From contig CAXBME010000002.1 in NCBI GenBank assembly GCA_963976765.1, positions 248,001-312,000 of the forward strand: a stretch of 64,000 bases of DNA. Direction: 5' to 3'. The DNA is from an uncultured Planctomycetaceae bacterium. Lineage in GTDB: Bacteria; Planctomycetota; Planctomycetia; Planctomycetales; Planctomycetaceae. Positions 3,925-29,683 of this stretch are shown here, piece by piece (position 1 is the first letter of the stretch; every line of letters starts with the position of its first letter). The position numbers and the translations under genes were made by a program. Under the pieces are notes generated by a model, which saw only the letters and a list, made by a program, of their open reading frames with translations, had not been told where the DNA came from and made no database searches.

Positions 3925-5943
3925 ATGACCGATTCGCCGCCCTCTCAAACCGAAATCCCGCCAGCACCGAAGCCGAACCGACTTCCAATTGTGCTGCTGC
4001 TCGGGGTGCTCATTATTGGAGCGGGCGAAGCAGCCCGGCGTTGGATCACGCAGGAAATCGACCCGGCAGTCACCACGCAGACCGACAACCGGCTGATGGA
4101 AAGCGAAGGACTGATTCTTGACCTGACGCCGCGTCTGAAAGAGCTGCTCAACACCAGCGTTATGAATCTGTCGTTGCCCGACGCGCTCGGCGTTGAATTG
4201 TTTGCCGAGGATGCGAGCATCGTCGATCTGGCCGACGAGCCACCGCACGGGAAAAAGAATCTCCCCGCCTTGCAGCTCCGCAAGTTTTCCTGGGCCATTG
4301 ACGGCACCGGGTCAAAGACGCCCCGAAGCGAGCTTTCACTGTGGCGTGCGTTGTTCAAGTCTGTCGACTACTTCGAACGAGCTGGCTTCAAGTTTGTACG
4401 AAGCCATTTCGACGATGTCGACTCCGACCTGCTGCATTCGGACGTTGCCTTCGAGGGGCTTGCTCGCGACAGAACCGGGCACCTTGTTCTGGTAAAAGCC
4501 GAGCAAAGCTTGAGCTGGCGTACAAAACTCGAAACGCCTGAATCGTCAGTCAACGCGCGGGCAGACACAGGCAAGGAAAACGCGACGGCGGGTGGGAAGC
4601 CTTCGGCTGCCGACCAGTGGCAAATTGTCGCCTGGACGCAAACGAACCTCGAAACGATTCTCGCGGAGCAGACATTCTTTTCAGAAACTCTCGACGCGGC
4701 AGTTCCTGATGCCGAACTTCGAAACCGCCTGCGGGACAGCCTGCACGAGCGGTACATCCTCAGCCGCTACGAGGCTCTGTCAAAGCACGAAGAATGGAAA
4801 GGGCCGCACCCGTATTTTTCAGTCGTTTCGCAGGACCGGCATCCGTCGCTCTCGGTCGTCGACATCGATCAGGATGGCCTCGACGACATCTACGTCATGG
4901 CACGCTGGGGAAAGAACATCCTTCTGCATAACAAAGGCGGATACTTCGAGGACGTCGCCGCGCAGTACGGTCTGGACATCGACGGTCATTGCTCCAGCGC
5001 TTTGTTTGCCGATTTTGATAACGACGGCGACGACGATCTCATGCTCGGTCGCACGCTCGTTCCCAGCCAGTATTTGGAAAACGACAACGGCCACTTTGTC
5101 GACCGAACTGAATCGCTGGTCGACGGTGGACTTCCCTCGCTCGTGACATCGGTTTCAGCCGCTGATTACAACGGCGACGGACTGCTCGACGTCTACCTTT
5201 CCACTTACGCGGCCAACATGCTGGAAGACGAAAACCGAGATCGTGGGCCGCCACTGAAAAATCCCGACGCACCGGGAGTACTGACTGACTTTCTGCCCGA
5301 ATCCGACGCCGTCGCACTTCAGGAACGCTTGTCGAAGCGTGACAACCACCGCTACCTCAATAACTTTGGCCCGCCGAATCTGTTGCTGGTCAATCGTGGC
5401 GGACGATTTGAAACCGCTCCTGAAAACAAACAGGTCGCTGCCTGGCGGCACACTTATCAGGGATCGTGGAGCGACTACGACCAGGATGGCGACCCCGACC
5501 TTTACATCGCCAACGACTTCGCCGTGAACTCGCTGATGAGAAACGACGGCGACGCTGGCTTCGTCGACGTCGCCAGAGAATCCGGCACGACGGACATCGG
5601 CTTCGGCATGGGTGCATCCTGGGGCGACTACGACAACGATGGCCGAGCCGACCTGTACGTCTCCAACATGTTCAGCAAAGCCGGTCGACGCATCACCGGA
5701 TCGCTCAAAGGGATCGACGATCGCTTCGCCCTGATGGCGAGGGGCAACTCGCTGTTTCACAATTCGGAAACGAGCTTCGAAAAGGTCTCCGGACTTGAAG
5801 AACCGACACTGCAAGTAGAAAAGGCCGGCTGGTCATGGTCAGGCCAGTTCGTCGATTTCGACAACGACGGCTGGCTCGATGTGCACGCGCTGAGTGGCTA
5901 TTACTCGGCGCCACCGGAAGTCGCCGTGCAGGTCGATTTGTGA
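3925..5943 (+). CDS. FG-GAP/VCBS repeat (CRTAC1-like) protein, N-terminal part; probably reads through UGA 5941-5943 as selenocysteine into 5944-7176
   Basis: N-terminal TM segment and many DxDxDGxxD repeats (DIDQDGLDD, DFDNDGDDD, DYNGDGLLD, DYDNDGRAD). The stop is TGA, in frame with the next ORF. Confidence 0.85.
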   Translation: MTDSPPSQTEIPPAPKPNRLPIVLLLGVLIIGAGEAARRWITQEIDPAVTTQTDNRLMESEGLILDLTPRLKELLNTSVMNLSLPDALGVELFAEDASIVDLADEPPHGKKNLPALQLRKFSWAIDGTGSKTPRSELSLWRALFKSVDYFERAGFKFVRSHFDDVDSDLLHSDVAFEGLARDRTGHLVLVKAEQSLSWRTKLETPESSVNARADTGKENATAGGKPSAADQWQIVAWTQTNLETILAEQTFFSETLDAAVPDAELRNRLRDSLHERYILSRYEALSKHEEWKGPHPYFSVVSQDRHPSLSVVDIDQDGLDDIYVMARWGKNILLHNKGGYFEDVAAQYGLDIDGHCSSALFADFDNDGDDDLMLGRTLVPSQYLENDNGHFVDRTESLVDGGLPSLVTSVSAADYNGDGLLDVYLSTYAANMLEDENRDRGPPLKNPDAPGVLTDFLPESDAVALQERLSKRDNHRYLNNFGPPNLLLVNRGGRFETAPENKQVAAWRHTYQGSWSDYDQDGDPDLYIANDFAVNSLMRNDGDAGFVDVARESGTTDIGFGMGASWGDYDNDGRADLYVSNMFSKAGRRITGSLKGIDDRFALMARGNSLFHNSETSFEKVSGLEEPTLQVEKAGWSWSGQFVDFDNDGWLDVHALSGYYSAPPEVAVQVDL

Positions 5944-9606: not shown

Positions 9607-10241
9607 ATGATGTCTCCAGCTTCGAGGCCGTCGTTGCTGAATTCACAGCCTGCCGCGGGTGGGAATGCTTCATTGACGCATCCGGCCCCCCCGTTTGTCT
9701 ACCGAAACCGCGATTTTATTTGAAAAGATTGAACTGCGTTGGCGCGACACGAGCCAATTCCACTGTCGCACGACAACCCGCCTCGGCGAGCACCCGGATT
9801 TCCGTTGCCCATTTTTGATTTTTTAGTGATCGCACTGACAGGAATTTGTTCAGGACAAAAAGTACACTCACCAAAAAGAGTAAACTCGTCCACAGATCAT
9901 TAACAAACCAGTGAGGGCACTATGACTGATTCTTCAACACTTGTTCGCCACCTGAAACGGTTGCGACAAAGGCCAGCCCCACACCCCGGCAGTTGCGTCA
10001 GTGACGACAAACTGCCGGCTCCGCATCACGGCATGGTTGGAGTAGCGACCGTACTGCACCTCGGTTGCCGTCTTCTGAAGTCTCAGTGCGCGACGGCGCT
10101 GTGGAAACCGGCTCAATCGGCGTTTGTCAAATTGTCGCGGCAATCCAGCCCGCCGGCTCCCAAATACCCAGACCCCCTTGCGACGCCATTTCCTGCACCG
10201 ACTGGTAAGTTGCCGCGCAGAAAACCTCGAACCAGCCGCAC

Positions 10242-10283
10242 AAAAGCCCCACCGCGAGTCTCCACTCACGACGGGGCTTTTTT
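10242..10283 (-). terminator. Intrinsic terminator downstream of the mini-array (possibly bidirectional)
   Basis: Minus-strand RNA AAAAGCCCCGUCGUGAG-UGGAGA-CUCGCGGUGGGGCUUUU pairs fully with three G-U wobbles. On the plus strand these are A-C mismatches, followed by T6. Confidence 0.7.
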
Positions 10284-10307: not shown

Positions 10308-10410
10308 GCATCAATGGGGCCGCGGTTTTGAGGCCGCGGAAAACTCGCCACAAGCGACATCCTCATCTCATCGCCAAGGCTTCAATGGGGCCAGGCCGTG
10401 AACCTGGAAT
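10308..10410 (-). CRISPR. One-spacer CRISPR mini-array (crRNA-like regulatory RNA, CreR/CreA-type)
   Basis: On the minus strand: degenerate repeat ATTCCAGGTTCACGGCCTGGCCCCATTGAAGC (10410-10379), 35-nt spacer (10378-10344), and near-consensus repeat TTTTCCGCGGCCTCAAAACCGCGGCCCCATTGATGC (10343-10308, 34/36 identical to the array repeat). Confidence 0.9.
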
Positions 10411-10519
10411 TGCTGGCAGCCGAGAGCCGTTACATCCCTGAACCCGATTTTCGAACTGGTCGTCCGACATAGCACAGAAAACAAAACAACTCACAAAAAC
10501 TTGCGTCGACAGCTACAGA

Positions 10520-10548
10520 ACAATAACCTGCTTGTATATATTTTTCAA
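10520..10548 (-). promoter_or_regulatory. Candidate sigma70-type promoter for the mini-array
   Basis: TTGAAA (10548-10543), 17 nt, TATTGT (10525-10520) on the minus strand in an AT-rich intergenic region. Confidence 0.4.
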
Positions 10549-10570
10549 TCCTCATTTCATCTCCAAGAAA
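10548..10570 (-). promoter_or_regulatory. Protospacer and PAM targeted by the mini-array spacer
   Basis: Minus strand TTT|CTTGGAGATGAAATGAGGAT versus spacer 5' end CTTGGCGATGAGATGAGGAT: 18/20, with mismatches at positions 6 and 12. Confidence 0.85.
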
Positions 10571-10645
10571 CATGAATAATTCATTCTCCTTGAAACGTCC
10601 TGTATCACAGGGGGCCGTTAAATTCTTCAGACGCGGAGACAAGCG

Positions 10646-11104
10646 ATGACTCAGGACGATTACGTAAAACTGCTGAAAAAGTTTGTGGATGAGGATGCAT
10701 TGCAGCAGGCATGGCTTGAGCTTCAGGCCAGAGATCCCGGTCTTGACCTGCAAAGCATCGATCGTCGGCTCCTCATTGGCCGGGCAAAATTTCGAATTGC
10801 CGATCAACACCGTCGGCGGCGGCGTGCAGGTTACGGCACGCTGGCGTCCCTGCTTAATTTCTCCTCGGACGAGAAGGATCCCGTAGTCTCTTCAGCAATC
10901 GACAAGGAGACAAAGGAAGAAGTACGGCGAGCAGTGGAAACGTTGAGCCCCACGTTTCGGGAAATCGCCATTCTGCTGTGGTTTGACGGACTGACTCCGG
11001 AAGAAGTCGCACTTCGAACTGGATTGAAACGGAAGACTGTTTACACGCGAAGACGACGAGCCGTGCAGCGTCTCCGAACACGCCTGACCACCCGTGGCCT
11101 GTGA
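10646..11104 (+). CDS. Minimal ECF-like sigma-70 family factor, first gene of the cas operon
   Basis: GGAG SD, region-2-like EDALQQAWLEL...RAKFRIADQHRRRRR, and region 4 AVETLSPTFREIAILLWFDGLTPEEVALRTGLKRKTVYTRRRRAVQRLR. Confidence 0.8.
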   Translation: MTQDDYVKLLKKFVDEDALQQAWLELQARDPGLDLQSIDRRLLIGRAKFRIADQHRRRRRAGYGTLASLLNFSSDEKDPVVSSAIDKETKEEVRRAVETLSPTFREIAILLWFDGLTPEEVALRTGLKRKTVYTRRRRAVQRLRTRLTTRGL

Positions 11105-11122: not shown

Positions 11123-11329
11123 ATGAATTTGATGGCCCTTCGAGATACGTGGCTGATGTTCCAGCGCGAGCAAGGATGCTCCGTCGATCGGATGCTGTGC
11201 CGCCCCGAGTTACGGGAAGAGTACATCGCAGCCGCCCGCACGGTCTGCGGCTGCAATGACGAGGAAACGATCCTCTGGAACACCGTCAACCTGCGGAAAA
11301 AGAAGACGCTGCCAAGCGTCCTGAAGTAG
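11123..11329 (+). CDS. Small hypothetical protein (68 aa) between the sigma gene and cas3
   Basis: Strong SD (AAGGAG) upstream; tight 18-bp and 36-bp spacing to its neighbours. Confidence 0.75.
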   Translation: MNLMALRDTWLMFQREQGCSVDRMLCRPELREEYIAAARTVCGCNDEETILWNTVNLRKKKTLPSVLK

Positions 11330-11365: not shown

Positions 11366-14017
11366 ATGACGTACGACGAATTCTTTCAAACAGCGCTGGC
11401 TGGCCAGAAGTACGCGCCGCGTGACTGGCAGCGGAAACTGGCAGAGGCCGGTGAACCTCGCAATCGTCTGATTCGCATTCCGACCGGAATGGGTAAGACG
11501 GCTGGCGTGCTGGCCGCCTGGCTCTGGAACGCTGTCAGTGATCAAAGCGGTGGTTCTCGCGAGGTCTGGCCGCGACGACTGGTGTGGTGCCTGCCAATGC
11601 GGGTGCTTGTTGAGCAGACTGCTGATGTTGCGCGGGACCTCGTCCTGCAGGCCGGATTGGAATCGCGGGTCGGCGTGCATTGCCTCATGGGCGGCGTCGA
11701 GTCGGACGAGTGGCATCTTCATCCAGAGAAGCCCGCGATTCTCGTCGGGACTCAGGACATGCTGCTGTCGCGAGCGCTCAATCGCGGTTACGCGTCCGGT
11801 CGGGCGCGGTGGCCGCATGAGTTCGGGTTGCTCAATCACGACTGCCTGTGGGTGATGGATGAAGTGCAGTTGATGGATGTCGGACTGGCGACGTCCGCGC
11901 AGTTGCAGGCGTATCGCGATGAAGAGTCGTCAAAAGGATTACGACCGTGCTTGACCTGGTGGATGAGCGCGACGCTGCAGCCCGAGTGGCTTCGCAGTGT
12001 GGATACGCAGAGCCGCTTCGAGGACTGGTGTCGCGATCCGTGCGTCATCGCGTCTGCTGAGCGAGTCGGCGGTTTATGGGACATTCCCAAACCGCTGGCG
12101 ACGACGTCGATTGAGGCAAAGAACGCCGCAGCCTTTGCGGCGAGGATTCTCGACGAACACGCGGCCATCGAGGCAGGCGAATTCGGACGCGTGACACTCG
12201 TCGTCTGCAACACCGTTGAGCGAGCCTGCCAGACCCATGCGGCACTGCAGAAAGCCGGTCGAACTGAGAATCTGGAGCTGGTTCACAGCCGGTTTCGACC
12301 ACACGAACGCTCGGGCTGGAGCCGCTACCTGAACCGCGACGCCTGCGGTCGCGACGCCGATCGCATCATCGTGGCGACGCAGGTAATCGAAGCCGGAGTT
12401 GATCTGTCCGCCGGATGCCTGGTCACTGAACTCGCTCCCTGGCCGAGCCTTGTGCAGCGTTTCGGACGCTGTGCCCGTTACGGAGGACAGGGGCGAATGC
12501 TCGTCGTGGATCGTGGTCAGAACGAGCAGTCAGCGCGCCCCTACGAGGTGACCACGCTCACCGCCGCCTGGGACGCGCTGCAGCGGCTGGATGATGCGGG
12601 GATCCGGTCGCTCGAAGAGTTTGAAGCGGGGCTCGATGACGAGCAGCGCGGGCTGCTTTATCCCTACTCGCCGAACCATCTGCTGATGCGGGACGAGTTC
12701 GTCGAACTGTTTGACACAACACCGGACCTGACCGGCGCGGACCTCGATATCAGCCGCTTCATCCGGTCGGGTACGGAGCGGGATCTGCAGGTCTTCTGGA
12801 TCGCCGTTCCCAAAGGCGACGCTCCCGACGATCGACTTCAGCCTCGCCGAGATGAACTGTGCAGCGTCCCGTTTCTCGCGGCTCAGGACTGGCTGTGCGG
12901 GAAAAAGTCCGTCGCCGAGCGGGCGTGGATCCGGGACTGGCTGGACGGTCAGTGGGTACCCGTCCGGCGCGAGATGCTGTTGCCTGGACGCGTGATCTGC
13001 GTCGCGGCCGAACGCGGTGGCTATGTTGCGGAAGCGGGATTCGCTCCGCACTCGAAAGTGCCCGTGCCGCCTGTTCCGACCGATCCAGAAATCACGTCGG
13101 ACTCGGTGGAGACGGCTTCCGGCAGGTCGGACAGTCAGCAGGATGACGAGTCGCTCAGCCGCAACGACTGGAAGTCGATCGCCTTTCACAGTCAGGAAGT
13201 CGCCGAAGAGGCCGCGTCCATCTGCTCAGAGCTGCAACTTCCGGACGACGTGTCGGAGCTACTGCAGCTTGCCGCCCGGTGGCACGATCTGGGCAAGTCG
13301 CATCCAGCGTTTCAGGGCATGCTGCGAGACAGAGAAAACGAGCAGCGTCCCGACCGAAGCGACCTCGCCAAAGGACCGGATGCCGCGTGGGAGACCGACC
13401 GCCAGAAGTTCTACACGTACCCCAACGGCTCTGATCAGCGGCGAGGCTTCCGGCACGAACTGGCCAGTGCACTGGCGATGTTCTCCGTGCTGAAGACGTT
13501 TGCGCCGCGACATCCCGCGTTGCTGGGACCGTGGGTCGAGCTGCTCGAATCGCTGTCCCACCCGGTGCCTGACGCTGCTGCGGAAGTCTCGCATCCGGAA
13601 ATTCAACGACTCATCGATTGCTCGGCGGATGACTTCGATCTGCTCGCGTATCTCGTGGCGAGTCATCACGGCAAGGTCCGGGTTGCTCTGCATGCGGCTC
13701 CGGCTGATCAGGACTACCAGCCGACCGATGGCGATCCGCACGGCCTGCCGATCCGCGGTGTTCGCACTGGTGACGTGCTGCCGTCGATCGCGCTGACTCC
13801 CGACGGTCTGCCACTGCCCGAGTTACCGCTCACGCTGGAACCCGCGGCGCTGGGCCTGTCGTTTGAAACCGGAGCAAGCTGGCGAGAGCGGACGCTGAAG
13901 CTCATCGAGCGGCTTGGTCCATCGCGACTGGGATTCCTCGAAGCCGTACTGCGCTCCGCCGACGTCCGGGCCTCCCAAAGGACAACAAGTGACCAGGCAT
14001 TCGAAACGGCGACATGA
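11366..14017 (+). CDS. cas3: Type I-G Cas3 (N-terminal SF2 helicase, C-terminal HD nuclease)
   Basis: PTGMGKT, DEVQ, SAT, ATQVIEAGVD and QRFGRCAR helicase motifs; C-terminal WHDLGK, RHELAS, SHHGK and LRSADVRAS. Confidence 0.95.
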   Translation: MTYDEFFQTALAGQKYAPRDWQRKLAEAGEPRNRLIRIPTGMGKTAGVLAAWLWNAVSDQSGGSREVWPRRLVWCLPMRVLVEQTADVARDLVLQAGLESRVGVHCLMGGVESDEWHLHPEKPAILVGTQDMLLSRALNRGYASGRARWPHEFGLLNHDCLWVMDEVQLMDVGLATSAQLQAYRDEESSKGLRPCLTWWMSATLQPEWLRSVDTQSRFEDWCRDPCVIASAERVGGLWDIPKPLATTSIEAKNAAAFAARILDEHAAIEAGEFGRVTLVVCNTVERACQTHAALQKAGRTENLELVHSRFRPHERSGWSRYLNRDACGRDADRIIVATQVIEAGVDLSAGCLVTELAPWPSLVQRFGRCARYGGQGRMLVVDRGQNEQSARPYEVTTLTAAWDALQRLDDAGIRSLEEFEAGLDDEQRGLLYPYSPNHLLMRDEFVELFDTTPDLTGADLDISRFIRSGTERDLQVFWIAVPKGDAPDDRLQPRRDELCSVPFLAAQDWLCGKKSVAERAWIRDWLDGQWVPVRREMLLPGRVICVAAERGGYVAEAGFAPHSKVPVPPVPTDPEITSDSVETASGRSDSQQDDESLSRNDWKSIAFHSQEVAEEAASICSELQLPDDVSELLQLAARWHDLGKSHPAFQGMLRDRENEQRPDRSDLAKGPDAAWETDRQKFYTYPNGSDQRRGFRHELASALAMFSVLKTFAPRHPALLGPWVELLESLSHPVPDAAAEVSHPEIQRLIDCSADDFDLLAYLVASHHGKVRVALHAAPADQDYQPTDGDPHGLPIRGVRTGDVLPSIALTPDGLPLPELPLTLEPAALGLSFETGASWRERTLKLIERLGPSRLGFLEAVLRSADVRASQRTTSDQAFETAT

Positions 14018-14086
14018 ATCCACGATGGCGCACGACGCGAACCACCAACCGCAATCCAGAACCACCGACCACGATCCAAAAACATC

Positions 14087-14191
14087 GGTCGCGTAGCGAC
14101 CAAATGCCGGTAGCCGGGGGTTTCAACCCTCGGTCAGGGAACATCAATGCCACACATCGATGTTCATCCGGAACGCGTCGCGTAGCGACGC
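14087..14191. repeat. REP-like palindromes left of the Y1 transposase
   Basis: GGTCGCGTAGCGACC, GTAG-CCGGGGGTTTCAACCCTCGG (14110-14133) and GCGTCGCGTAGCGACGC (14175-14191). Confidence 0.85.
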
Positions 14192-14240
14192 CTGATGCTC
14201 ACGACCTCAACGGCGAACGCAACAACATCAGAGAATCACA

Positions 14241-14693
14241 ATGGCCAACACCTACACGAGCCTGCGTTACCACATCGTCTTCAGCACGAAGGAACGCCGT
14301 CCGCTGATCGCCGCGGACATTGAACAGCGAGTGTGGGAATACCTTGGTGGCATCGCCCGACAGAACGGGATGCAGCCACTTCAGGTGGGAGGCATCGAGG
14401 ATCACATCCACATCGTGGTTAGCATTCCACCGACAATGGCGGTGAGCAAAGCCGTGCAACAGATCAAAGGCGGGTCGTCGAAATGGATCCATGAGACGTT
14501 TCTGGACCTCAACGACTTCGCATGGCAGGACGGATACGGAGCGTTTTCCGTCAGCCGGTCTCAGTTATCGACAGTCATCAACTACGCCGCCACGCAACGG
14601 GAGCATCACCGCGAGCGGAATTTTCAGGACGAATATCGATCGATCCTGGAGCGCCACGAAATCGAATACGACGAGCGATACGTCTGGGGCTGA
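14241..14693 (+). mobile_element. tnpA: IS200/IS605-superfamily Y1 (HUH) transposase, REP-associated (RAYT-like), no tnpB
   Basis: YHIVFSTK, DHIH (HUH motif), WQDGYGAFSVS and catalytic Tyr in NYAATQREHH; flanked by GTAG-containing REP hairpins. Confidence 0.9.
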
Positions 14694-14724
14694 CCGGAGA
14701 CCGCGATCAATGACAAATGAGTGC

Positions 14725-14980
14725 GGTCGCGTAGCGACCACATGCCGGTAACCGGGGGTTTCAACCCCCGGGCGTGCGGCAACCCCATCAACGCCATCGG
14801 GTACCCGGAACATTCACGACGCGTCGCGTAGCGACGCATGACAAACACGGATCGCACATGCATCGGCCATTCATCATGCGTCGCTACGCGACGCGTCCAA
14901 CAACCGAATCTCAAACGCGCGCGACACATGCAAACCGGGGGTTGAAACCCCCGGCTACCGGCGGGTTGTCGCTACGCGAC
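14725..14980. repeat. BIME/REPIN-like inverted cluster of REP palindromes
   Basis: Arrangement A-B-B'-A'. A = GTCGCGTAGCGAC..GTAACCGGGGGTTTCAACCCCCGG (14725-14771), B = GACGCGTCGCGTAGCGACGCATGA (~14818-14841), B' is its inverse (~14874-14897), A' = CCGGGGGTTGAAACCCCCGGCTAC..GTCGCTACGCGAC (~14935-14980). Confidence 0.85.
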
Positions 14981-15030
14981 GTGTGCCGATTCATCCGAAC
15001 GTCAATGACGGCACCTGCAAGGACTTCAGC

Positions 15031-17334
15031 ATGACACAACATCTGCATCATCTCCGAGGCTGTGCTCCGGCACCGCTGGCGTTGTATCTGAAGGCAATCG
15101 GCATCCTTCGCCTGATCGCCGAACAGGCCGACCCCGACGCACGCGGCTGGTGGCAGGACGAACATTTCTGCCTGCTCACGAAGCTCGATCGGGGCGAGAT
15201 CGAATCGTTCTTTCTGAATGACTACTCGCCCACACCTTTGCTCGCGCCTTGGAATGGTGGTTCAGGATTCTTCAGAACGTGGGACGCAAAGAGCGGGAAA
15301 CTTCGTAACAGCAAGAATGCCGCAGCGCTTGAATCGCTTCTCGAAACAAACGACCAGCGAGTTATCCAGCTTCGACTAGCAGCAAGTGAGGTCACGACAA
15401 CTCTGCCTGCGTATTGCGTACGCACGGACGTCTCAAAACTTTCGGCGAAGGAACGAAACAAACTGCTTGTCTTACCGGTTGGTGATGGCCCGACATTTCC
15501 GGTCATTCCCAAGGATGACTCTGGAAAACTGCAGGTGCAACGAACACTTCTCCGAATGTCCAGAGAGACTCCTTTCTATAGAAGCGCTCTCGTCGAAGTC
15601 GCGGAGAACATGAAAGGTCCGTGGCTTTGGGGAAGCGCAGGCAATGATGGCAACATCGACTACACCGGTCGATTTTTCGAAAATCTCAATTTGATTCTGA
15701 CGCCAAAGGACGTGGCGAAAAACGAGCGATTGCTGAATTGCTCACTGTTCGAGGAATCCACACACGGACTCCTTACGAACGCGGCGGGAAAAGTCGGACA
15801 ATTCTTTCCGACTGGTGCGGGTGGCCCTAATGTCACAACCGGTCCCGGGACACAGAAAGATACTTGTCTGAATCCTTGGGATTTCGTTCTCATGCTGGAA
15901 GGAGCCGTAGCCTTTAGTTCGAGCACTACGCGTCGTCTGGATCCGACTGCGATTCACCGATCAAGTTCACCATTCGTCGTTCAGTCACACACAGTGCGAA
16001 AGTCCACTGCACTGCACGAAAAAGACGAACGTGGCGAACAATGGATGCCATTGTGGAACAGGCCAGCATGCTTTCCTGATCTTTCTGCGTTAATAGCGGA
16101 GGCGCGATTACAAGTTGGGCGACGACCGGCCAAACGCCCGATAGATGCGGCCCTTTCGATTGCTCGGCTCGGGACTGCGCGAGGGCTTTCAGGGTTCGTT
16201 CGGTACAGTTTCCGAGAACGCAACGGAAGATCGCATCTCGCCGTCCTACTTGGGCGTATCAAGGTCAAACATCGACCCAATGCCACGCTTATTGATAACA
16301 TTGCGCCGTGGCTGGACCAGTTGCAGCGAATGTCACGTGATAAGAATGCTCCAGCACGCTTTGTTCATGCGGAGCAACGACTCGCTGATGCCGTGTTTGC
16401 CGTGCTCACTCACGATGAGACATCGGCACGGTGGCAGGCGGTCCTCGAAGCGGCGGTGGGTATTGAGTCGATTCAGGTTGGTGACACCGCCATCAAAGCC
16501 GGTCCGATTCCGTTCTTGTCGCCGGGCTGGATCAAAGCTGCCGGAACAGGAGACGGCTCGGCGGAATTCCGCCTCGCTCTTGCACTGGGCAGCGCGGCTC
16601 GGGGTTTTCCCAAAGGCCGGCGACCGATTGATTCTGTCCGGCATCACTGGCTGCCGCTCGAACCCGGAGCGTTCCGATTCTCAGTCTCGGACAAGCGATT
16701 GGCGCATGATTCGCGCGTCGTCATCTCCGGTCGCGATCCGGAAGCCGACTGTGCGGCGATCGTGCGACGGCGACTGATCGAAGGCGAACGCGACAGTGCC
16801 CGCTCGCTGCCGCTGAAGGCCGCGTTTGGATGCGACGCCCGGTTGAACGACCTCGCGGCATTGATCAACGGCGAAGTCGATCTCGATCGAGTGCTCACGC
16901 TGGCTCGCGCCTTCATGGCGATCGACTGGAAGAACTGGTCGGGCAAAGAGGTTCATTCAAACCTTCCAACACTACCGTCACGTGACAATCGACCAGTTCC
17001 TGACGATGCCTGGCTCGCGCTGCGACTCGCCTGTCTACCGAGCCTGAAAAAGAGCGGTCAGGCATCCGGCAACGTCGTCTCGAAAGACAACATCACGATC
17101 CCGGCGGAACCATCGCTCGTGTCCCGCCTGCTGTCGGGTGACGGCAGCGAAGCCGTCCGCATTGCCACTCGTCGGCTTGGTGCGTCCGGCATTCGGACAC
17201 CGTTCACGTCGGCGATCACCGATCCCGAAACCGCGCGCCGTTGGGCGGCGGCTCTGGCCTTTCCCATTTCGCTCCACAGTGCTCGTCGCGCTGTGGAGAT
17301 TCTCGTGCCTGACTTCTTTGGAGAGACTCGATGA
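15031..17334 (+). CDS. csx17: Type I-G large subunit Cas8g (Csx17/Cas8u1)
   Basis: LRGCAPAPLALYLKAIG N-terminus, YSPTPLLAPWNGGSGF, NPWDFVLMLEGA and EQWMPLW; position between cas3 and cas7. ATG 15031 is preferred over GTG 14983. Confidence 0.9.
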   Translation: MTQHLHHLRGCAPAPLALYLKAIGILRLIAEQADPDARGWWQDEHFCLLTKLDRGEIESFFLNDYSPTPLLAPWNGGSGFFRTWDAKSGKLRNSKNAAALESLLETNDQRVIQLRLAASEVTTTLPAYCVRTDVSKLSAKERNKLLVLPVGDGPTFPVIPKDDSGKLQVQRTLLRMSRETPFYRSALVEVAENMKGPWLWGSAGNDGNIDYTGRFFENLNLILTPKDVAKNERLLNCSLFEESTHGLLTNAAGKVGQFFPTGAGGPNVTTGPGTQKDTCLNPWDFVLMLEGAVAFSSSTTRRLDPTAIHRSSSPFVVQSHTVRKSTALHEKDERGEQWMPLWNRPACFPDLSALIAEARLQVGRRPAKRPIDAALSIARLGTARGLSGFVRYSFRERNGRSHLAVLLGRIKVKHRPNATLIDNIAPWLDQLQRMSRDKNAPARFVHAEQRLADAVFAVLTHDETSARWQAVLEAAVGIESIQVGDTAIKAGPIPFLSPGWIKAAGTGDGSAEFRLALALGSAARGFPKGRRPIDSVRHHWLPLEPGAFRFSVSDKRLAHDSRVVISGRDPEADCAAIVRRRLIEGERDSARSLPLKAAFGCDARLNDLAALINGEVDLDRVLTLARAFMAIDWKNWSGKEVHSNLPTLPSRDNRPVPDDAWLALRLACLPSLKKSGQASGNVVSKDNITIPAEPSLVSRLLSGDGSEAVRIATRRLGASGIRTPFTSAITDPETARRWAAALAFPISLHSARRAVEILVPDFFGETR

Positions 17335-18341
17335 CCGACCTGTCACCACTCAACGGCGTCAATCGCCTGCTGTTTACCGTCCCGCTGAAGCCCTTGCAGT
17401 CTGATCGCTTTCAACCGACCGGGTTCCCAAATCTCGGAGCCGCCACTTATCAGACGAGCGCCGGTCAAAAGCTGCTCGTTGAGAGCGCTCAGAGCATGGC
17501 CAACCGACTGGAAACCGTCTGCTGGGACACCGTCAACAATCAGCCCGTCGCCGACCTGAAGGGCATCAGCCACGTCACGGTCACGCGTCAGGGAAAATTC
17601 CTGACGGACACGATGCTTGAGGCGCATCGGCTCAACAGTGCGTATCTACTCGAAGGAAAAGACAAAACGTTTCTCACGCGACTCAGTGAAGAACTAGGGG
17701 ATTTCGAAGTGGGGCCGATCGATCGACATCGCTTCGCCCGAACGTTGCTGCGATTCGATGTCGGGAGCCTGATTCATGGCGTGTTTCTCGCGAAAAAGGA
17801 TCTTGCTGGTGGACGACTTCGAATGGCTCGTGCCGTTTCCGCGTTCATTGAAGCGACGGGAGTCCGAGTTGCTGCTTCCGGGGGCGTTAAGAACGACCAT
17901 GTTCATCCTTCAAAGGTAAAAGGCGATTCGAAGAATCACTTCGGCAATATCCCATTCGCCCGGGATGAGTTCACTGCTGATTCGATCGACTGTCACATCA
18001 ACATCGACCTCGCACAGATCCGTGGCTATGGGCTCGATGAGCGTGTTGAGCGGATGCTGATTCTGCTCGCACTTTTCCGTGTTCGCCGGCTGCTGGATGG
18101 CGACCTCCGTCTCCGAACCGCGTGCGATCTAACACCCGTCGATGGTGACTCAATCAGGGCGAGTCGCCCGTCTGGCTTCATGTTGCCATCGTCGAGCGAG
18201 CTCGATGCCTCAGTCGCAGAAGCCATCACCCCGTGTTGCGAATTAATGAGCCATGAGACAATCACTTTTGAAGACAAACTTGAGAAAGCGCAAGACGACA
18301 CGTCCGACGATGACAGTGACGCCAAGACCGACGAGGAATAG
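17331..18341 (+). CDS. csb1: Type I-G Cas7 (Csb1/Cas7u)
   Basis: RFQPTGFPNLG, LLVESAQSMANRLE, EAHRLNS, SGGVKND and LRLRTACDL. Confidence 0.92.
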   Translation: MTDLSPLNGVNRLLFTVPLKPLQSDRFQPTGFPNLGAATYQTSAGQKLLVESAQSMANRLETVCWDTVNNQPVADLKGISHVTVTRQGKFLTDTMLEAHRLNSAYLLEGKDKTFLTRLSEELGDFEVGPIDRHRFARTLLRFDVGSLIHGVFLAKKDLAGGRLRMARAVSAFIEATGVRVAASGGVKNDHVHPSKVKGDSKNHFGNIPFARDEFTADSIDCHINIDLAQIRGYGLDERVERMLILLALFRVRRLLDGDLRLRTACDLTPVDGDSIRASRPSGFMLPSSSELDASVAEAITPCCELMSHETITFEDKLEKAQDDTSDDDSDAKTDEE

Positions 18342-18344
18342 CCG

Positions 18345-20009
18345 ATGCCAACCATCGAACTACGGTTCCCTGGCGGTCGCTATCACGCGACGCCCTGGGG
18401 CCATCACGTCAATGAGGGACAGATCGAATGGCCGCCCTGTCCCTGGCGACTGCTGCGCGCTCTGATCGCGACAGGTTTCGCCACACAGCACTGGCTGGAA
18501 CTGCCAGACGTCGCCCGCTCGCTCATCGAGCGGCTGGCGTCAGTGTTGCCCACGTACGAGCTTCCACCGGCCAGTGCGGCACACAGTCGTCACTATATGC
18601 CGACGGGCGAACTCTCAAAGGGCAGCGAAAAGACGACGCTTGTCTTCGACACCTGGGCCAACGTCGAAGCCGGCCTCCTGAGAGTCCGCTGGGACTGCGA
18701 ACTCGACGACGAGCAGCGTGACTTGTTCACACGACTCGTTGAGTCGCTTGGCTATCTCGGTCGCAGCGAAAGCTGGGTCGAAGGCAGCGTCATCGCAGAC
18801 GATGTCGAACTGGCTACGGGTCGGTTCGCTGTTCCTCATCAGGAAGGCGAACTACGTGGCCCCGAGTGGGAACAGGTCTCGCTGATGGCTGCGGTTCCGG
18901 CTGAACCGTACGCCGCGTGGTCGGAACAACGCGGATCCGACGCACTCAAGGAACACCCTCTGCCGGACGGGAAGAAGAAGCCGAGCAAGGCGCTGCTGAA
19001 GAAACGCGAACAGGCTGTCGCTCCGTATCCGCGCGACCTGATCGAGTGCCTGACGAAAGACACCGTCTGGTGGAAGAAGCAGCACAACTGGAGCCAGCCG
19101 CCCGGTTCACGCCGCGTACTTTATTGGCGCAGAACGAACGCTCTGGTCGTCGCTCCGCCGCGCGATCGCGCCCGACGCAACGGACGCCAGGTCGAACATC
19201 GTGTCGAGGCGATGCTGCTGTCGCTGTCGACTCCCAGTCGCAACTCGTCGGCACTCCCGCACGTGACGCGGACTCTTCCGCAGGCTGAGTTGATGCATCG
19301 GGCTTTGGTCGGTCGCGCTGGACACGGCGGCAGAGTCCACTGCCCGGAACTCACCGGCAAAGACGAACACGGCCAGCCGCTGCGGGAGGGGCATCAGCAC
19401 GCACATGTGCTGCCGCTCGACCTCGACGGCGATCAGCACCTCGATCACGTCCTCGTCTTCACCCGGAGAGCCGACGACGGTGGGATGCTGCTGGGTGAAG
19501 TCGCACAACAGGCCATTGCCGGTCTGAGAAAAACGTGGACCAAAGGCCGTGACGCCGATCTGCAGGTCTCGCTGATCGGACGCGGCACTGTGGATTCACT
19601 CCGTCGCCTGCCCGAGCCGCTCACGTCTGGAATCAACAGTCTGCTGGGCGAGGCCGCTGGCTCGCGTTTCTGGATCAGTGCGACCCCGTTTGTTCCGCCG
19701 CGTTATCTCAAACGCAACGGGAAGAACACGCTGGAGGGGCAGATTGCCGCCGAACTGGCCTCGCGGGGACTCCCGGAGCTGGTCCGTTTCGAACTGCTCA
19801 CCCAGTCAGCCAGTGAGCCCGATCATGAACGAGCAAGGATACTCCGACACCATGTCCGCGTTCGTGGGCATGGCGGCCAGGCTCCCCCGATGGATGCCGG
19901 GTTTGCATTGAAAATCGAACTGGCACGCCCCTGTTCCGGGCCTCTTTTACTGGGCTACGCATCCCACTTCGGCCTGGGGCTGTTTCAAGCGACCGATGAG
20001 CAGATCTGA
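18345..20009 (+). CDS. csb2: Type I-G Csb2 (Cas5-Cas6 fusion, crRNA processing)
   Basis: GRYHATPWG, EWPPCPWRLLRAL, YLGRSESW, WISATPFV and the C-terminal G-rich loop GPLLLGYASHFGLGLF. Confidence 0.93.
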   Translation: MPTIELRFPGGRYHATPWGHHVNEGQIEWPPCPWRLLRALIATGFATQHWLELPDVARSLIERLASVLPTYELPPASAAHSRHYMPTGELSKGSEKTTLVFDTWANVEAGLLRVRWDCELDDEQRDLFTRLVESLGYLGRSESWVEGSVIADDVELATGRFAVPHQEGELRGPEWEQVSLMAAVPAEPYAAWSEQRGSDALKEHPLPDGKKKPSKALLKKREQAVAPYPRDLIECLTKDTVWWKKQHNWSQPPGSRRVLYWRRTNALVVAPPRDRARRNGRQVEHRVEAMLLSLSTPSRNSSALPHVTRTLPQAELMHRALVGRAGHGGRVHCPELTGKDEHGQPLREGHQHAHVLPLDLDGDQHLDHVLVFTRRADDGGMLLGEVAQQAIAGLRKTWTKGRDADLQVSLIGRGTVDSLRRLPEPLTSGINSLLGEAAGSRFWISATPFVPPRYLKRNGKNTLEGQIAAELASRGLPELVRFELLTQSASEPDHERARILRHHVRVRGHGGQAPPMDAGFALKIELARPCSGPLLLGYASHFGLGLFQATDEQI

Positions 20010-20407: not shown

Positions 20408-22333
20408 ATGATTTCGCCTCGCGATGTGGCGTCCCTCGACGCTTCACCCTCGTCTCCCTACCGTCCCGACGAGACTCACTTCGATGTGCCGGACCTTATC
20501 CCGGCGCGAATGCTCAACGAGTTCGCCTACTGCCCGCGACTCAGTTATCTCGAATGGGTGCAGAGCGAGTGGGCCGATAATCTGGAAACCGACCAGGGAA
20601 CCTTCGGGCATCGCGTAGTCGACAAGCCGTCGCGTGGAGCCGTTCCCGAAGGAGCCGAGGCAAAGGAGTCCAACAACGAGGAACAGGAGTCGGCGAACGC
20701 AGCATCGAAGCAGGAGCAACCCGCCGCAGAAAGTCCTGGTCCCTCGTCTCCTGACTCTCCAACTACTACCGACCCTCCGCCGTCGATTCACGCTCGGTCG
20801 ATGACGCTGTCCGCGCCGGAAGAAGGACTGATCGCCAGACTTGATCTGCTGGAACTCGACGGCAACTTCGCGACTCCGGTGGACTATAAACGCGGCAAGG
20901 CTCCCGACATTCCCGAAGGAGCTTACGAACCCGAGCGAGTTCAGGTCTGTGCTCAGGCTCTGATCCTGCGAGAAAATGGCTTCGAGGTCACCGAGGGAAT
21001 TCTGTACTTCATCGCGTCCCGTCAGCGAGTCGTCATTCCGATCGATGATGAGCTTGTCGAGCGGACTCGCGAACTGATCAAGCAGTTGCGTTTCACGGCG
21101 GACGAAGGTGTGATTCCTCCGCCGCTTGAAGACAGCCCGAAGTGCCCACGCTGTTCGCTGGTCGGTATCTGTATGCCGGACGAACTGAACTGGCTGAGGA
21201 GGGACGAGGGGCAAGGGCGGAAGGACGAGAGTCAGAAAACGGCGACAAAACCAAACGACTCGAGCGGGCAACTCTCGTTCAACTTTGAGGCAGCATCCGA
21301 AACGAAGACTCCCCGACAACTGCTCGTCACACGCGACAACGCTTTGCCGCTGTATCTGCAGGAGCATGGCCTGTCTCTGGGAAAAACCGGTGAGCAACTG
21401 GCGGTCAAAAAGAAAGGCAGCCTGATTCAGAAGGTGCGGCTGCTGGACGTCTCGCAGGTCTGTCTGTTCGGCAGCATTCACATCACCGAACCGGCCTTGC
21501 GCGAGCTGATCACTCGCGGCGTTCCGGTCTGCCACTTTTCCTACGGCGGCTGGTTCTACGGAATCACCACCGGGCTGGTTCATCGCAACATCGATTTGAG
21601 AATTCGTCAGTACGCGGTGGCGGCTTCGGAGGGCGAGTCGCTGGAATTCGCTCGGCGATTCGTTAGTGGAAAAATCCGAAACTGTCGGACGCTGCTGCGA
21701 CGTCACCTGCAGAGCGATGATCGCGACCGGCTGCTGTTTCAGTTAAATGATCTCATTGGCAAGGCGGAACGCGCCGATTGTGTGGCGAGCCTGCTCGGCT
21801 TCGAAGGGATGGCCGCGAAATCCTACTTCGGCGGATTTTCCAAACTGCTCAAAGGCGGCTCGGCGTTCGACATCAACGGTCGAAACCGTCGCCCGCCTCG
21901 CGATCCAACCAACGCTTTACTGTCATTCGTCTATGCGCTGCTGACGAAAGAACTCACCGTTGCCGCGCAGTCGGTCGGCTTCGATCCGATGCTTGGCTTC
22001 TACCACCGACCTCGCTACGGACGACCGTCACTGGCTCTGGATGTCTGCGAAGAATTTCGTCCGCTGCTGGCCGACTCGACCGTGCTGACACTCATCAACA
22101 ACGGAGAAGTTACCGAGTCCAGCTTCATCAGTCGTGCCGGAGCAGTCGCACTGACAGCAGCCGGCCGGCGAGCCGTCATGGCTGCCTTCGAACGACGCAT
22201 GCAGTCAGAAGTGACTCACCCGCTGTTCGGATACCGGATCAGCTATCGGCGCATTCTTGAAGTGCAGTTGCGACTGCTCGCTCGCACTGTTCTGAAGGAA
22301 CTCGACGAGTACCCGTCGTTCTGCACGCGGTAA
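20408..22333 (+). CDS. cas1: Cas4-Cas1 fusion
   Basis: Cas4 part: YCPR, PVDYKRG, QVCAQ and CPRCSLVGIC Fe-S cysteines. Cas1 part: LLGFEG, RNRRPPRDPTNALLSF, GFYH and LALDVCEEFR. Confidence 0.95.
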   Translation: MISPRDVASLDASPSSPYRPDETHFDVPDLIPARMLNEFAYCPRLSYLEWVQSEWADNLETDQGTFGHRVVDKPSRGAVPEGAEAKESNNEEQESANAASKQEQPAAESPGPSSPDSPTTTDPPPSIHARSMTLSAPEEGLIARLDLLELDGNFATPVDYKRGKAPDIPEGAYEPERVQVCAQALILRENGFEVTEGILYFIASRQRVVIPIDDELVERTRELIKQLRFTADEGVIPPPLEDSPKCPRCSLVGICMPDELNWLRRDEGQGRKDESQKTATKPNDSSGQLSFNFEAASETKTPRQLLVTRDNALPLYLQEHGLSLGKTGEQLAVKKKGSLIQKVRLLDVSQVCLFGSIHITEPALRELITRGVPVCHFSYGGWFYGITTGLVHRNIDLRIRQYAVAASEGESLEFARRFVSGKIRNCRTLLRRHLQSDDRDRLLFQLNDLIGKAERADCVASLLGFEGMAAKSYFGGFSKLLKGGSAFDINGRNRRPPRDPTNALLSFVYALLTKELTVAAQSVGFDPMLGFYHRPRYGRPSLALDVCEEFRPLLADSTVLTLINNGEVTESSFISRAGAVALTAAGRRAVMAAFERRMQSEVTHPLFGYRISYRRILEVQLRLLARTVLKELDEYPSFCTR

Positions 22334-22376: not shown

Positions 22377-22670
22377 ATGAGAACCGTTTACCTGATCGCT
22401 TACGACATTCGTGACCCCAAACGCTGGCGACAGATTTACCGCATCATGTGCGGCGCCGGTGACCCGGTTCAGTACTCTGTCTTCCGCTGCGAGCTGACGG
22501 CTCTGGAACTTCAGCGAATTCAATCGGCGCTCTGGAGTGAGCTGAACCTGAATGAAGATCGCATCATGGTGGTGGACCTTGGCCCGATCGATGGGCGAGG
22601 CGACGGCTGCATCGAGTACTGGGGAAACCCGAAGGTTGAACCTTCCGACCGATCCGCGACAATCATTTGA
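22377..22670 (+). CDS. cas2: CRISPR-associated endonuclease Cas2
   Basis: YLIAYDIRDPKRWR and VQYSVF motifs; 97 aa. Confidence 0.95.
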   Translation: MRTVYLIAYDIRDPKRWRQIYRIMCGAGDPVQYSVFRCELTALELQRIQSALWSELNLNEDRIMVVDLGPIDGRGDGCIEYWGNPKVEPSDRSATII

Positions 22671-28900: not shown

Positions 28901-29683
28901 AATGGTGGGTTGGTGATGTTTCCGCGGCCTCAAAACCGCGGCCCCATTGAAGCTACTCAGAACTATGCGTTGTACGTTCACGAAATTCCGGTTTCCGCGG
29001 CCTCAAAACCGCGGCCCCATTGAAGCTTACTATTGTCGGTCCTGGTGACCGCCACTAAGCCGGTTTCCGCGGCCTCAAAACCGCGGCCCCATTGAAGCGT
29101 CTCCCCAACTTGGGAAGAGCATTTTATATTTTGGCGTTTCCGCGGCCTCAAAACCGCGGCCCCATTGAAGCACGGTCAGAGCCATTCAGACGATCCAATG
29201 GCTGAAACGTTTCCGCGGCCTCAAAACCGCGGCCCCATTGAAGCGCAGTGGTCTGAGATATCGCCTGCTGATCCAGTAACGAGTTTCCGCGGCCTCAAAA
29301 CCGCGGCCCCATTGAAGCAGCCTGGCGGCGATGGGCAATCCTCACGCGGACGTGTTTCCGCGGCCTCAAAACCGCGGCCCCATTGAAGCGACATCCGACG
29401 ATTCGACGTCTGACACTTCTGATACGTGTTTCCGCGGCCTCAAAACCGCGGCCCCATTGAAGCACGCCCAACAGCAGTCACAGTGACCGTCCGCCCTGTG
29501 GTTTCCGCGGCCTCAAAACCGCGGCCCCATTGAAGCGTCACTTGGAATTGCATTGCTGAGTCCCTTGAGTCGTTGTTTCCGCGGCCTAAAAACCGCGGCC
29601 CCATTGAAGCTTGTCCGTCGAGGCGCAACCGACGTTGACTTTTCCGCGTTTCCGCGGCCTCAAAACCGCGGCCCCATTGAAGC
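22973..29683 (+). CRISPR. Type I-G CRISPR array, 93 repeats / 92 spacers (manual count)
   Basis: 36-bp repeat GTTTCCGCGGCCTCAAAACCGCGGCCCCATTGAAGC with spacers of about 34-41 nt. The penultimate repeat (29575) has one C>A change. The 3' ATTGAAGC handle indicates + orientation. Confidence 0.99.

Follow-up and report, generated by a model that had tools for sequence, protein, structure and literature searches.

A one-spacer mini-array on the minus strand of a 64,000-nucleotide (nt) stretch of DNA from an uncultured Planctomycetaceae bacterium (contig CAXBME010000002.1, positions 248,001 to 312,000; this whole stretch is referred to as the window) is probably a CreR-type regulator, encoding a CRISPR RNA (crRNA)-like molecule through which the adjacent type I-G CRISPR-Cas system would repress its own expression. 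The element, located between positions 10308 and 10414, has the anatomy of such a regulator, its target site is unique in the genome, and pairing of the Cascade type next to a protospacer-adjacent motif (PAM) has been under selection across 26 loci of Planctomycetota. A preliminary description, made from the letters of the window, had proposed that Cascade loaded with a crRNA-like RNA acts at its own control region. Pairing at the 26 loci, drift at guide positions 6, 12 and 18, TTN flanks and conservation of the repeats all lend sequence-level support to this proposal. RNA-guided self-regulation of CRISPR-Cas would thereby be extended to type I-G, with unusually clean comparative support.

Regulators of this kind are already known, and have been predicted for type I-G. 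CreR was validated in types I-B, I-E and V-A (Liu et al., bioRxiv 10.1101/2023.03.10.532045), and the same preprint reports creA-like elements found by manual search in types I-D, I-C, I-E, I-F and I-U, the last being the former name of I-G. As described there, and as found here, the cas operon is accompanied by a single spacer-like sequence between two degenerate repeats, of which the first keeps the handle and the second the 3′ part; the PAM-flanked site matched by the 5′ part of the guide falls in or beside the cas promoter. Both also share a model of autorepression that would be relieved by crRNA competition or by anti-CRISPRs, and the negative feedback released by anti-CRISPRs in the preliminary description is this published model. 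The present element differs in its subtype, in that the promoter-nearest genes encode a sigma-like protein and a 68-amino-acid (68-aa) protein rather than effector subunits, in the contact between its target site and the -35 of the RNA's own candidate promoter, and in belonging to a subtype whose characterised effector contains Cas3 as a built-in subunit; it is also known from sequence alone. Regulatory mini-arrays of types I-E and I-F1 (PMC10120712) likewise are transcribed away from cas3 and have a partial, PAM-flanked target. A table in that paper (Shmakov et al. 2023) counts 235 loci of type I-G and puts the fraction with a mini-array at 0.04; in the text searched, type I-G appears in this table entry only, and the module of sigma-like and 68-aa genes in Planctomycetota goes unmentioned. 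What the sequence comparisons below appear to add is the breadth of conservation, a read-out of the pairing rule and PAM from covariation, a fixed geometry relative to the RNA's own promoter, and the constant presence of the sigma-like and 68-aa genes.

Anatomy of the mini-array and its target site

A degenerate repeat, a 35-nt spacer and a near-perfect repeat had been placed by the preliminary description on the minus strand, about 12.6 kb from the main array, and both the coordinates and the repeat identities bear this out. The degenerate first repeat (10379-10414, minus) consists of a CCAGG...CCTGG hairpin, then CCCC, then the 8-nt handle ATTGAAGC. Its hairpin is altered on both arms (CCAGG/CCTGG vs CCGCGG/CCGCGG in the array repeat), the changes being compensated to leave 5 bp in the centroid fold, and its 3′-terminal 12 nt (CCCCATTGAAGC) are exactly those of the array repeat. 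The handle is therefore fully kept, and the hairpin ends 4 nt before it. In type I-G, where the PAM is TTN, the cut made by Csb2 falls 4 nt beyond the hairpin base on its 3′ side, leaving an 8-nt 5′ handle, and the enzyme is retained on the 3′ hairpin (PMC9638904); as judged from its predicted fold, the spacing of hairpin and handle in the first repeat matches this published cleavage geometry.

The spacer-like guide (10344-10378, minus) is 35 nt long, within the range of the main-array spacers (34-41 nt). It is followed by the second repeat (10308-10343, minus), which is identical to the array repeat GTTTCCGCGGCCTCAAAACCGCGGCCCCATTGAAGC at 34 of 36 positions and was the sole reverse-strand match in a search with that repeat (1 mismatch in that search). 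Here the full CCGCGG hairpin is retained and the handle portion is changed (ATTGATGC); from this arrangement, the 3′ hairpin of the mature RNA is expected to come from the second repeat. The Rfam model CRISPR-DR16 matched the second repeat on the minus strand at 25.9 bits, under its gathering score of 35, and sub-threshold matches to the same model put the main-array repeats on the plus strand. Beside the cas operon there is thus a degenerate repeat-spacer-repeat unit with the handle in its first repeat and the hairpin in its second, the arrangement that defines CreR.

A candidate sigma-70-like promoter for the mini-array was identified at 10520-10548 (minus), with a -35 of TTGAAA (10548-10543) and a -10 of TATTGT (10525-10520) separated by 17 nt (9 of 12 matches). 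At its PAM-distal end, the target site adjoins or overlaps this -35. At the other end of the element, a predicted bidirectional intrinsic terminator (10240-10283, both strands), comprising an 18-bp hairpin at 10246-10277 with a T-run on each strand, could end both the mini-array transcript (minus) and that of the upstream gene (plus). Folding of the minus-strand RNA gave a long, strong hairpin at 10246-10277 followed by UUUUGU. A simple terminator scan made no call at 10240-10283, the hairpin lying outside the loop and stem rules of that scan.

The target occupies 10548-10570 on the minus strand, with a protospacer-like sequence at 10567-10548 and a 5′-TTT PAM at 10570-10568. Guide nt 1-20 match 10567-10548 with mismatches at positions 6 and 12 only, and no match extends past position 20. 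These features, all given in the preliminary description, were reproduced, and the site proved unique in the 8.57-Mb genome. The same description had stated that every sixth guide base is flipped out and that I-G uses TTN-type PAMs, and both statements are confirmed in the structural work on this subtype, in which Cas7 holds nucleotides in a 5+1 arrangement with every sixth base flipped out (Shangguan 2022, PMC9638904). A validated I-F1 mini-array is also mismatched at guide positions 6 and 12 (PMC10120712). A match of this quality was obtained in 0 of 100 shuffles of the window and 0 of 300 shuffles of the spacer. When the whole genome was scanned using, within nt 1-17, only the 15 positions open to Cascade pairing (1-5, 7-11 and 13-17), the target was the only site with 15/15; no site reached 14/15, and a TTN flank was present at none of the ten sites with 13/15. 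As in CreR, the 5′ part of the guide matches a site with the PAM of its subtype, in the divergent region expected to hold the cas promoter. Pairing spans 17-20 of the 35 nt here, and 13-21 nt in relatives when one extra mismatch is allowed.

The target lies in an AT-rich divergent control region, 79 nt upstream of the ATG of the sigma-like gene at 10646. The distance of about 80 bp to the first operon gene, as originally stated, therefore holds; if a cas gene was meant by this, the gene itself does not, since a sigma-70/extracytoplasmic function (ECF)-like gene occupies that place. A 25-codon upstream open reading frame (ORF; 10572-10649, plus) starts 2 nt past the PAM and ends in an ATGA that overlaps the start of the sigma-like gene. 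This ORF is probably not a gene, because its counterpart in the nearest relative (locus L082) stops after 14 codons.

Covariation of guide and site across Planctomycetota

Homologous loci were collected using a Cas3g query against 398 genomes of the same order and, in a second collection for which the mini-array was not consulted, using the 68-aa protein as anchor in GTDB species genomes and metagenome contigs. At its cutoff of E <= 1e-20, the Cas3g protein query does not reach loci of the Cas8g2 type, in which Cas3g is divergent. Mini-arrays were sought by the handle motif on the strand opposite the cas genes, and the 36 nt following each handle were scored against the surrounding 1.2 kb over the same 15 Cascade-pairable positions, with a threshold of >=13/15. 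Positions 6, 12 and 18 were left out of the scoring, so that chance-level agreement at these positions is unbiased. A naive seed scan overlooked sites with one extra mismatch (in G308, G150 and G176), which were recovered by the 15-position scoring.

The 42 loci obtained carried 35 unique spacers, and for 26 of these a nearby site could be identified at >=13/15. Every one of the 26 sites was flanked by TTN (TTC in 13, TTT in 7, TTA in 4 and TTG in 2). Among the unique loci anchored on the 68-aa protein (n = 30), 23 were clear, 2 were borderline (12/15 with TTN) and 5 had nothing. A relaxed search for a guide/site pair in loci where no mini-array had been detected (L057, L071, L094, L039, L042, L043 and L092) returned no pair, and in G078 (L041), where a mini-array is present, the best site (11/15, TTT) was no better than shuffles (73/300).

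Across the 26 loci the paired positions matched at 369 of 390, and the flipped positions 6, 12 and 18 matched at 16 of 78, the level of chance. Guide positions 1-5 matched in 25-26 of the 26 loci, position 6 in 7, positions 7-11 in 22-26, position 12 in 6, positions 13-17 in 20-26 and position 18 in 3; farther along, matches fell to 9-13 at positions 19-22 and, from position 23 onwards, to 3-10, which is at chance. Because this positional pattern is the 5+1 signature of Cascade pairing, the pairing is, on the evidence of these sequences, under selection. Covariation of spacer and target in homologous I-G loci, which the preliminary description had named as a check, was thus found, and three features, the 5+1 rule, the TTN PAM and an upper limit of 17 nt on pairing, can be read directly from 26 independent natural guide/site pairs. 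Among 2600 decoys drawn from the same regions, 40 scored at >=13/15 and 4 did so with a TTN flank as well. Spacers compared with the sites of other loci gave a mean of 4.85/15 and a maximum of 11 (650 pairs), and spacers compared with one another a mean of 4.81/15. The guides are mutually unrelated and cross-locus pairing is low, which means that guide and site have changed together on many occasions.

These counts bear directly on whether the mini-array could be an inert relic of an old array, its similarity to the site having arisen by chance or local duplication. The degenerate first repeat and the single spacer would suit a relic. Duplication, however, would have retained positions 6, 12 and 18, yet it is these that match at the level of chance beside their well-matched neighbors, and 26 unrelated spacer/site pairs all carry a TTN flank, compared with the 4 of 2600 decoys at the same threshold. 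Such an origin is hardly credible, being contradicted already by the pairing pattern, the flanks and the decoy counts.

The guide of the closest relative, L082, is common with that of the window, and there the match is lost after nt 17 (nt 18-20 unmatched). The conserved pairing core is, in the sequences compared, 17 nt in three five-base segments, and the match of nt 18-20 in the window is probably incidental. The first repeats of the relatives are free to vary in sequence, and most keep a hairpin ending 4 nt before ATTGAAGN. Second repeats, found in 22 of the 26 loci, keep a strong canonical hairpin and have a decayed handle (ATTGAGGT, ATTGGTGT, ATTTGTGA and others). As predicted from these features, the anatomy of the repeats fits a single mature crRNA-like product.

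The module was identified in records of Planctomycetota that include Kuenenia, Pirellulales and Planctomycetaceae. In G076 (L040, 4093-4347) the 68-aa gene is apparently frameshifted and the mini-array is kept with a 13-nt match only, and in G131 (L039/L078, ~4013-4123) the 68-aa gene is apparently truncated and no mini-array was seen; these two cases suggest, as far as sequence can tell, that the module decays as a unit. In L076, from a Thermoguttaceae metagenome-assembled genome, 7-nt units (GGTGTTA, GGGAGTT and variants) are repeated in long tandem runs at 50-400 and 1160-1270, upstream of the 68-aa gene, and no mini-array was found in this locus.

Site geometry, first operon genes and the proposed circuit

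In all 26 loci the site falls in the interval that separates the mini-array from the sigma-like gene, at 56-193 nt from the handle. A usable call of the sigma-like ORF was available for 24 of the 26 related loci, and in these the gap from the site to the ORF was 18-99 nt; in the window it was 75 nt. In at least 7 of the 24 the gap was less than 50 nt, leaving no room for a separate promoter; the operon promoter must therefore overlap the site or sit just upstream of it. The strand of the site is variable (16 minus, 10 plus). A minus-strand promoter-like pair of the form TTGnnn-N16-18-TAnnnT abuts the site in 20 of the 26 loci, in either orientation of the site, and in these 20 the -35 starts between 3 nt inside and 11 nt beyond the site edge. 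The same pair occurred at 23 of 5200 random positions and at 15 of 2132 locally shifted positions. As the site abuts this pair, bound Cascade would cover the -35 of the RNA's own candidate promoter. By eye, -10-like motifs of the TGAATAAT type could also be recognised a few bases past the PAM.

The fixed spacing of site to promoter elements and the genetic linkage of a sigma gene to an RNA-guided effector are also features expected of RNA-guided activation, in which site-bound Cascade would recruit the sigma-like protein of the locus together with RNA polymerase and drive transcription at a fixed distance. There is a precedent in dCas12f-sigma-E (Hoffmann et al., Nature 2026, PMC13472631), where an ECF-type sigma gene is likewise linked to an RNA-guided effector and the guide targets a site near the regulated genes. 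That system, however, is a nuclease-dead class 2 activator that is motif-independent and directional, whereas the present loci encode an intact I-G effector, have ordinary -35/-10 motifs (20 of 26 loci) and show both site orientations. Cas3g of the window has both its helicase and its HD domain (NCBIfam), and is thus not the subunit of a nuclease-dead effector. The locus does not belong to the dCas12f-sigma-E class, which is nuclease-dead, fixed in orientation and motif-independent, and activation of this kind is highly improbable here.

The sigma-70/ECF-like gene (10646-11104, plus) is the first gene of the operon and encodes a protein of 152 amino acids that matches NCBIfam TIGR02937 over residues 11-147 (50.3 bits vs a cutoff of 42.9). 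Pfam identified Sigma70_r4_2 and Sigma70_r4, which correspond to region 4 only; region 2 was weak and seen in one relative. The gene holds the same place in the relatives, where its products have diverged quickly, with 15-41% identity once the nearest relative is set aside. It is followed on the same strand, after 18 nt, by the 68-aa gene (11123-11329, plus), and this in turn, after 36 nt, by cas3g.

The 68-aa protein matched no Pfam or NCBIfam family. Its 45 homologues (57-100% identity) are nearly all unnamed and come from Planctomycetota or metagenomes; within the order, the family is present in 30 of 398 genomes. Residues invariant in the alignment include D8, T9, C19, S20, D22, R23, C26 and W52. 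AlphaFold2 predicted four helices with a predicted local distance difference test score (pLDDT) of 91. A search of this fold against the PDB gave nothing at E <= 0.001 and only weak Myb- or trihelix-like rows; in the ESM Atlas the fold was found within Planctomycetota proteins bearing GIY-YIG, N6/N4 DNA methyltransferase or TIR domains, matches between predicted models that serve as a lead only. The model resembles a small helical domain that may bind DNA. Weak matches to it were also seen inside ORFs of 250-420 amino acids in G078, G055, G352, G085, G126 and G025. The downstream cas genes that were checked in the anchored loci are all of type I-G, in both the Cas8g1 and Cas8g2 forms, and in L060 and L083 cas7g and csb2 come immediately after the 68-aa gene. 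As far as our searches show, the sigma-like and 68-aa genes have not been described as the constant first genes under such putative control. The term "sigma" is absent from the text searched in the mini-array literature, including PMC10120712 and bioRxiv 10.1101/2023.03.10.532045. The two genes offer an entry point to the wiring of defence expression in Planctomycetota.

Their position raises the possibility of a two-tier circuit, in which guide-loaded Cascade would mainly control the sigma-like protein, and perhaps the 68-aa protein as well, and the sigma-like protein would switch on cas or other genes, so that loss or inhibition of Cascade would fire a sigma regulon instead of only derepressing one operon. 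A sigma-70/ECF-like gene is the first after the site in the window and in the relatives examined, with the 68-aa gene next, and the ECF sigma factor DdvS controls CRISPR-Cas in Myxococcus xanthus (PMC6061681). The DdvS/DdvA system, of type III-B, shares with the present locus an ECF-type sigma tied to CRISPR-Cas expression; it differs in that its sigma factor is paired with an anti-sigma protein of the membrane, feedback through a guide RNA is absent, and the sigma gene is not the first of the cas operon. The close spacing of the same-strand genes, however, makes plain co-transcription with cas3g a sufficient explanation, and the sigma-like proteins are poorly conserved. In addition, no sigma-dependent promoter motif is known inside the loci, where no search for one was made. 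A two-tier arrangement is therefore considered unlikely.

The RNA toxin-antitoxin pairs called CreTA, of type I-B, reportedly use a crRNA-like RNA to direct Cascade to a partially matching promoter; they differ from the present locus, in which no separate toxin gene is evident. In an addiction module of this type, the RNA would repress a gene that is harmful upon loss of Cascade, here the sigma-like or the 68-aa gene, and thereby safeguard the cas genes. CreA-type RNAs have the same anatomy as CreR, and protein toxins repressed by a CRISPR effector have been reported (10.1101/2024.01.05.574328). On the other hand, a site-to-ORF gap of 18-99 nt is too small for a separate small toxin gene, neither the sigma-like nor the 68-aa protein matches a toxin family, and the predicted fold of the latter resembles a possibly DNA-binding helical domain. 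We regard an addiction module as very unlikely.

Autorepression of the CreR type remains the probable explanation, and could proceed as follows. A minus-strand transcript of the mini-array would start at the element's own sigma-70-like promoter. Csb2 would cut 4 nt past the degenerate first hairpin and stay on the second, giving a product with the 5′-ATTGAAGC handle, the 35-nt guide and a 3′ hairpin. This RNA would compete with ordinary crRNAs for Cas proteins and load into Cascade, which could then recognise the TTT-flanked site at 10548-10570 and pair with it over three Cas7 segments (nt 1-5, 7-11 and 13-17; here to nt 20). The parked complex would cover the -35 of the mini-array and the start of the divergent operon (the sigma-like gene, the 68-aa gene and cas3g onward). 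With plentiful free Cascade, the mini-array and the operon would both be repressed, and loss or inhibition of Cascade, or its engagement with ordinary crRNAs, would lift the brake.

Several points weigh against autorepression. Transcription and processing of the mini-array RNA are predictions from its sequence, as are the binding of Cascade and its escape from cutting by Cas3, and repression is the sign of effect that we infer by analogy. The characterised I-G effector has Cas3 as a stable subunit that is needed for stable binding to double-stranded DNA and that nicks near R-loop position 8. The preliminary description had counted binding by partial pairing without Cas3 cleavage among established facts; this stands for other subtypes, and safe parking on self DNA with 17 nt of pairing is a rule taken from them that is not established for I-G. 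The operon promoter was not located: a strict plus-strand scan was positive in 3 of the 26 loci only, and these 3 calls overlap the palindromic -10 of the minus-strand promoter. Five of the 30 loci anchored on the 68-aa protein are without a mini-array or pair (L071, L076, L078, L094 and L092, the last with only 786 nt upstream), and many I-G loci of the same order are without the module. In the window itself, a transposase gene has inserted between cas3g and cas8g, and transcription of the Cascade genes may as a result have become independent of the regulated promoter. Finally, the PAM of the system's own array spacers is not derivable, because no protospacers were found: the 92 spacers gave short chance matches only against their own genome, array-to-array repeat matches only, among the matches listed, against the 398 genomes of the order, and no match against 50,697 phage records.

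Cutting by Cas3 may be what the conserved 17-nt limit on pairing serves to avoid. As Cas3 travels with Cascade in type I-G, these loci represent a natural experiment on how much pairing with self DNA is tolerated without cutting, a question that is also relevant to the use of I-G in gene silencing as opposed to genome editing. A more far-reaching idea, which we hold to be doubtful, is that guide-loaded Cascade, beyond throttling its own operon, gates the sigma-like factor and the 68-aa protein in the I-G systems of Planctomycetota, that its loss or inhibition (for example, by an anti-CRISPR) would fire a transcription programme, and that three-segment pairing over 17 nt would be the length below which the built-in Cas3 is not licensed to cut.

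Type I-G locus and main array

The operon had been assigned to type I-G in the preliminary description, and the full gene set with its array agrees, all NCBIfam subtype models scoring above their cutoffs. On the plus strand, the genes are cas3g (11366-14017), cas8g1/csx17 (14983-17334), cas7g/csb1 (17331-18341), csb2, encoding a Cas5-Cas6 fusion (18345-20009), a cas4-cas1 fusion (20408-22333) and cas2 (22377-22670). The transposase gene inserted between cas3g and cas8g belongs to the IS200 family (14241-14693, plus) and has palindromic repeats on both sides. Within the insertion (14086-14975), palindrome-rich repeats of ~48 nt can be identified at 14086-14133 and 14724-14771, with an inverted copy at ~14933-14975, and from these features the unit looks like a repetitive extragenic palindrome (REP)-associated transposase unit. 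A second I-G locus also carries an IS200-like gene, in this case between the 68-aa gene and cas3g (L059:4075-4851).

Within cas7g, a 20-nt string (17834-17854, plus) combines the first 9 and last 9 nt of the CRISPR repeat (GTTTCCGCG..CATTGAAGC). Its exact form occurs once in the genome, and it encodes the Cas7g motif AVSAFIEA. Because this motif is kept in all relatives, the string is probably a coding coincidence and not a hidden repeat.

The main array (22973-29683, plus) comprises 93 repeats (92 exact and one variant) and 92 spacers, and is the sole array in the 8.57-Mb assembly. The variant is the penultimate repeat (29577-29612, plus), which has a C-to-A change in its loop (GCCTAAAAACC). 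Such a change at the distal end fits the old trailer end of the array.

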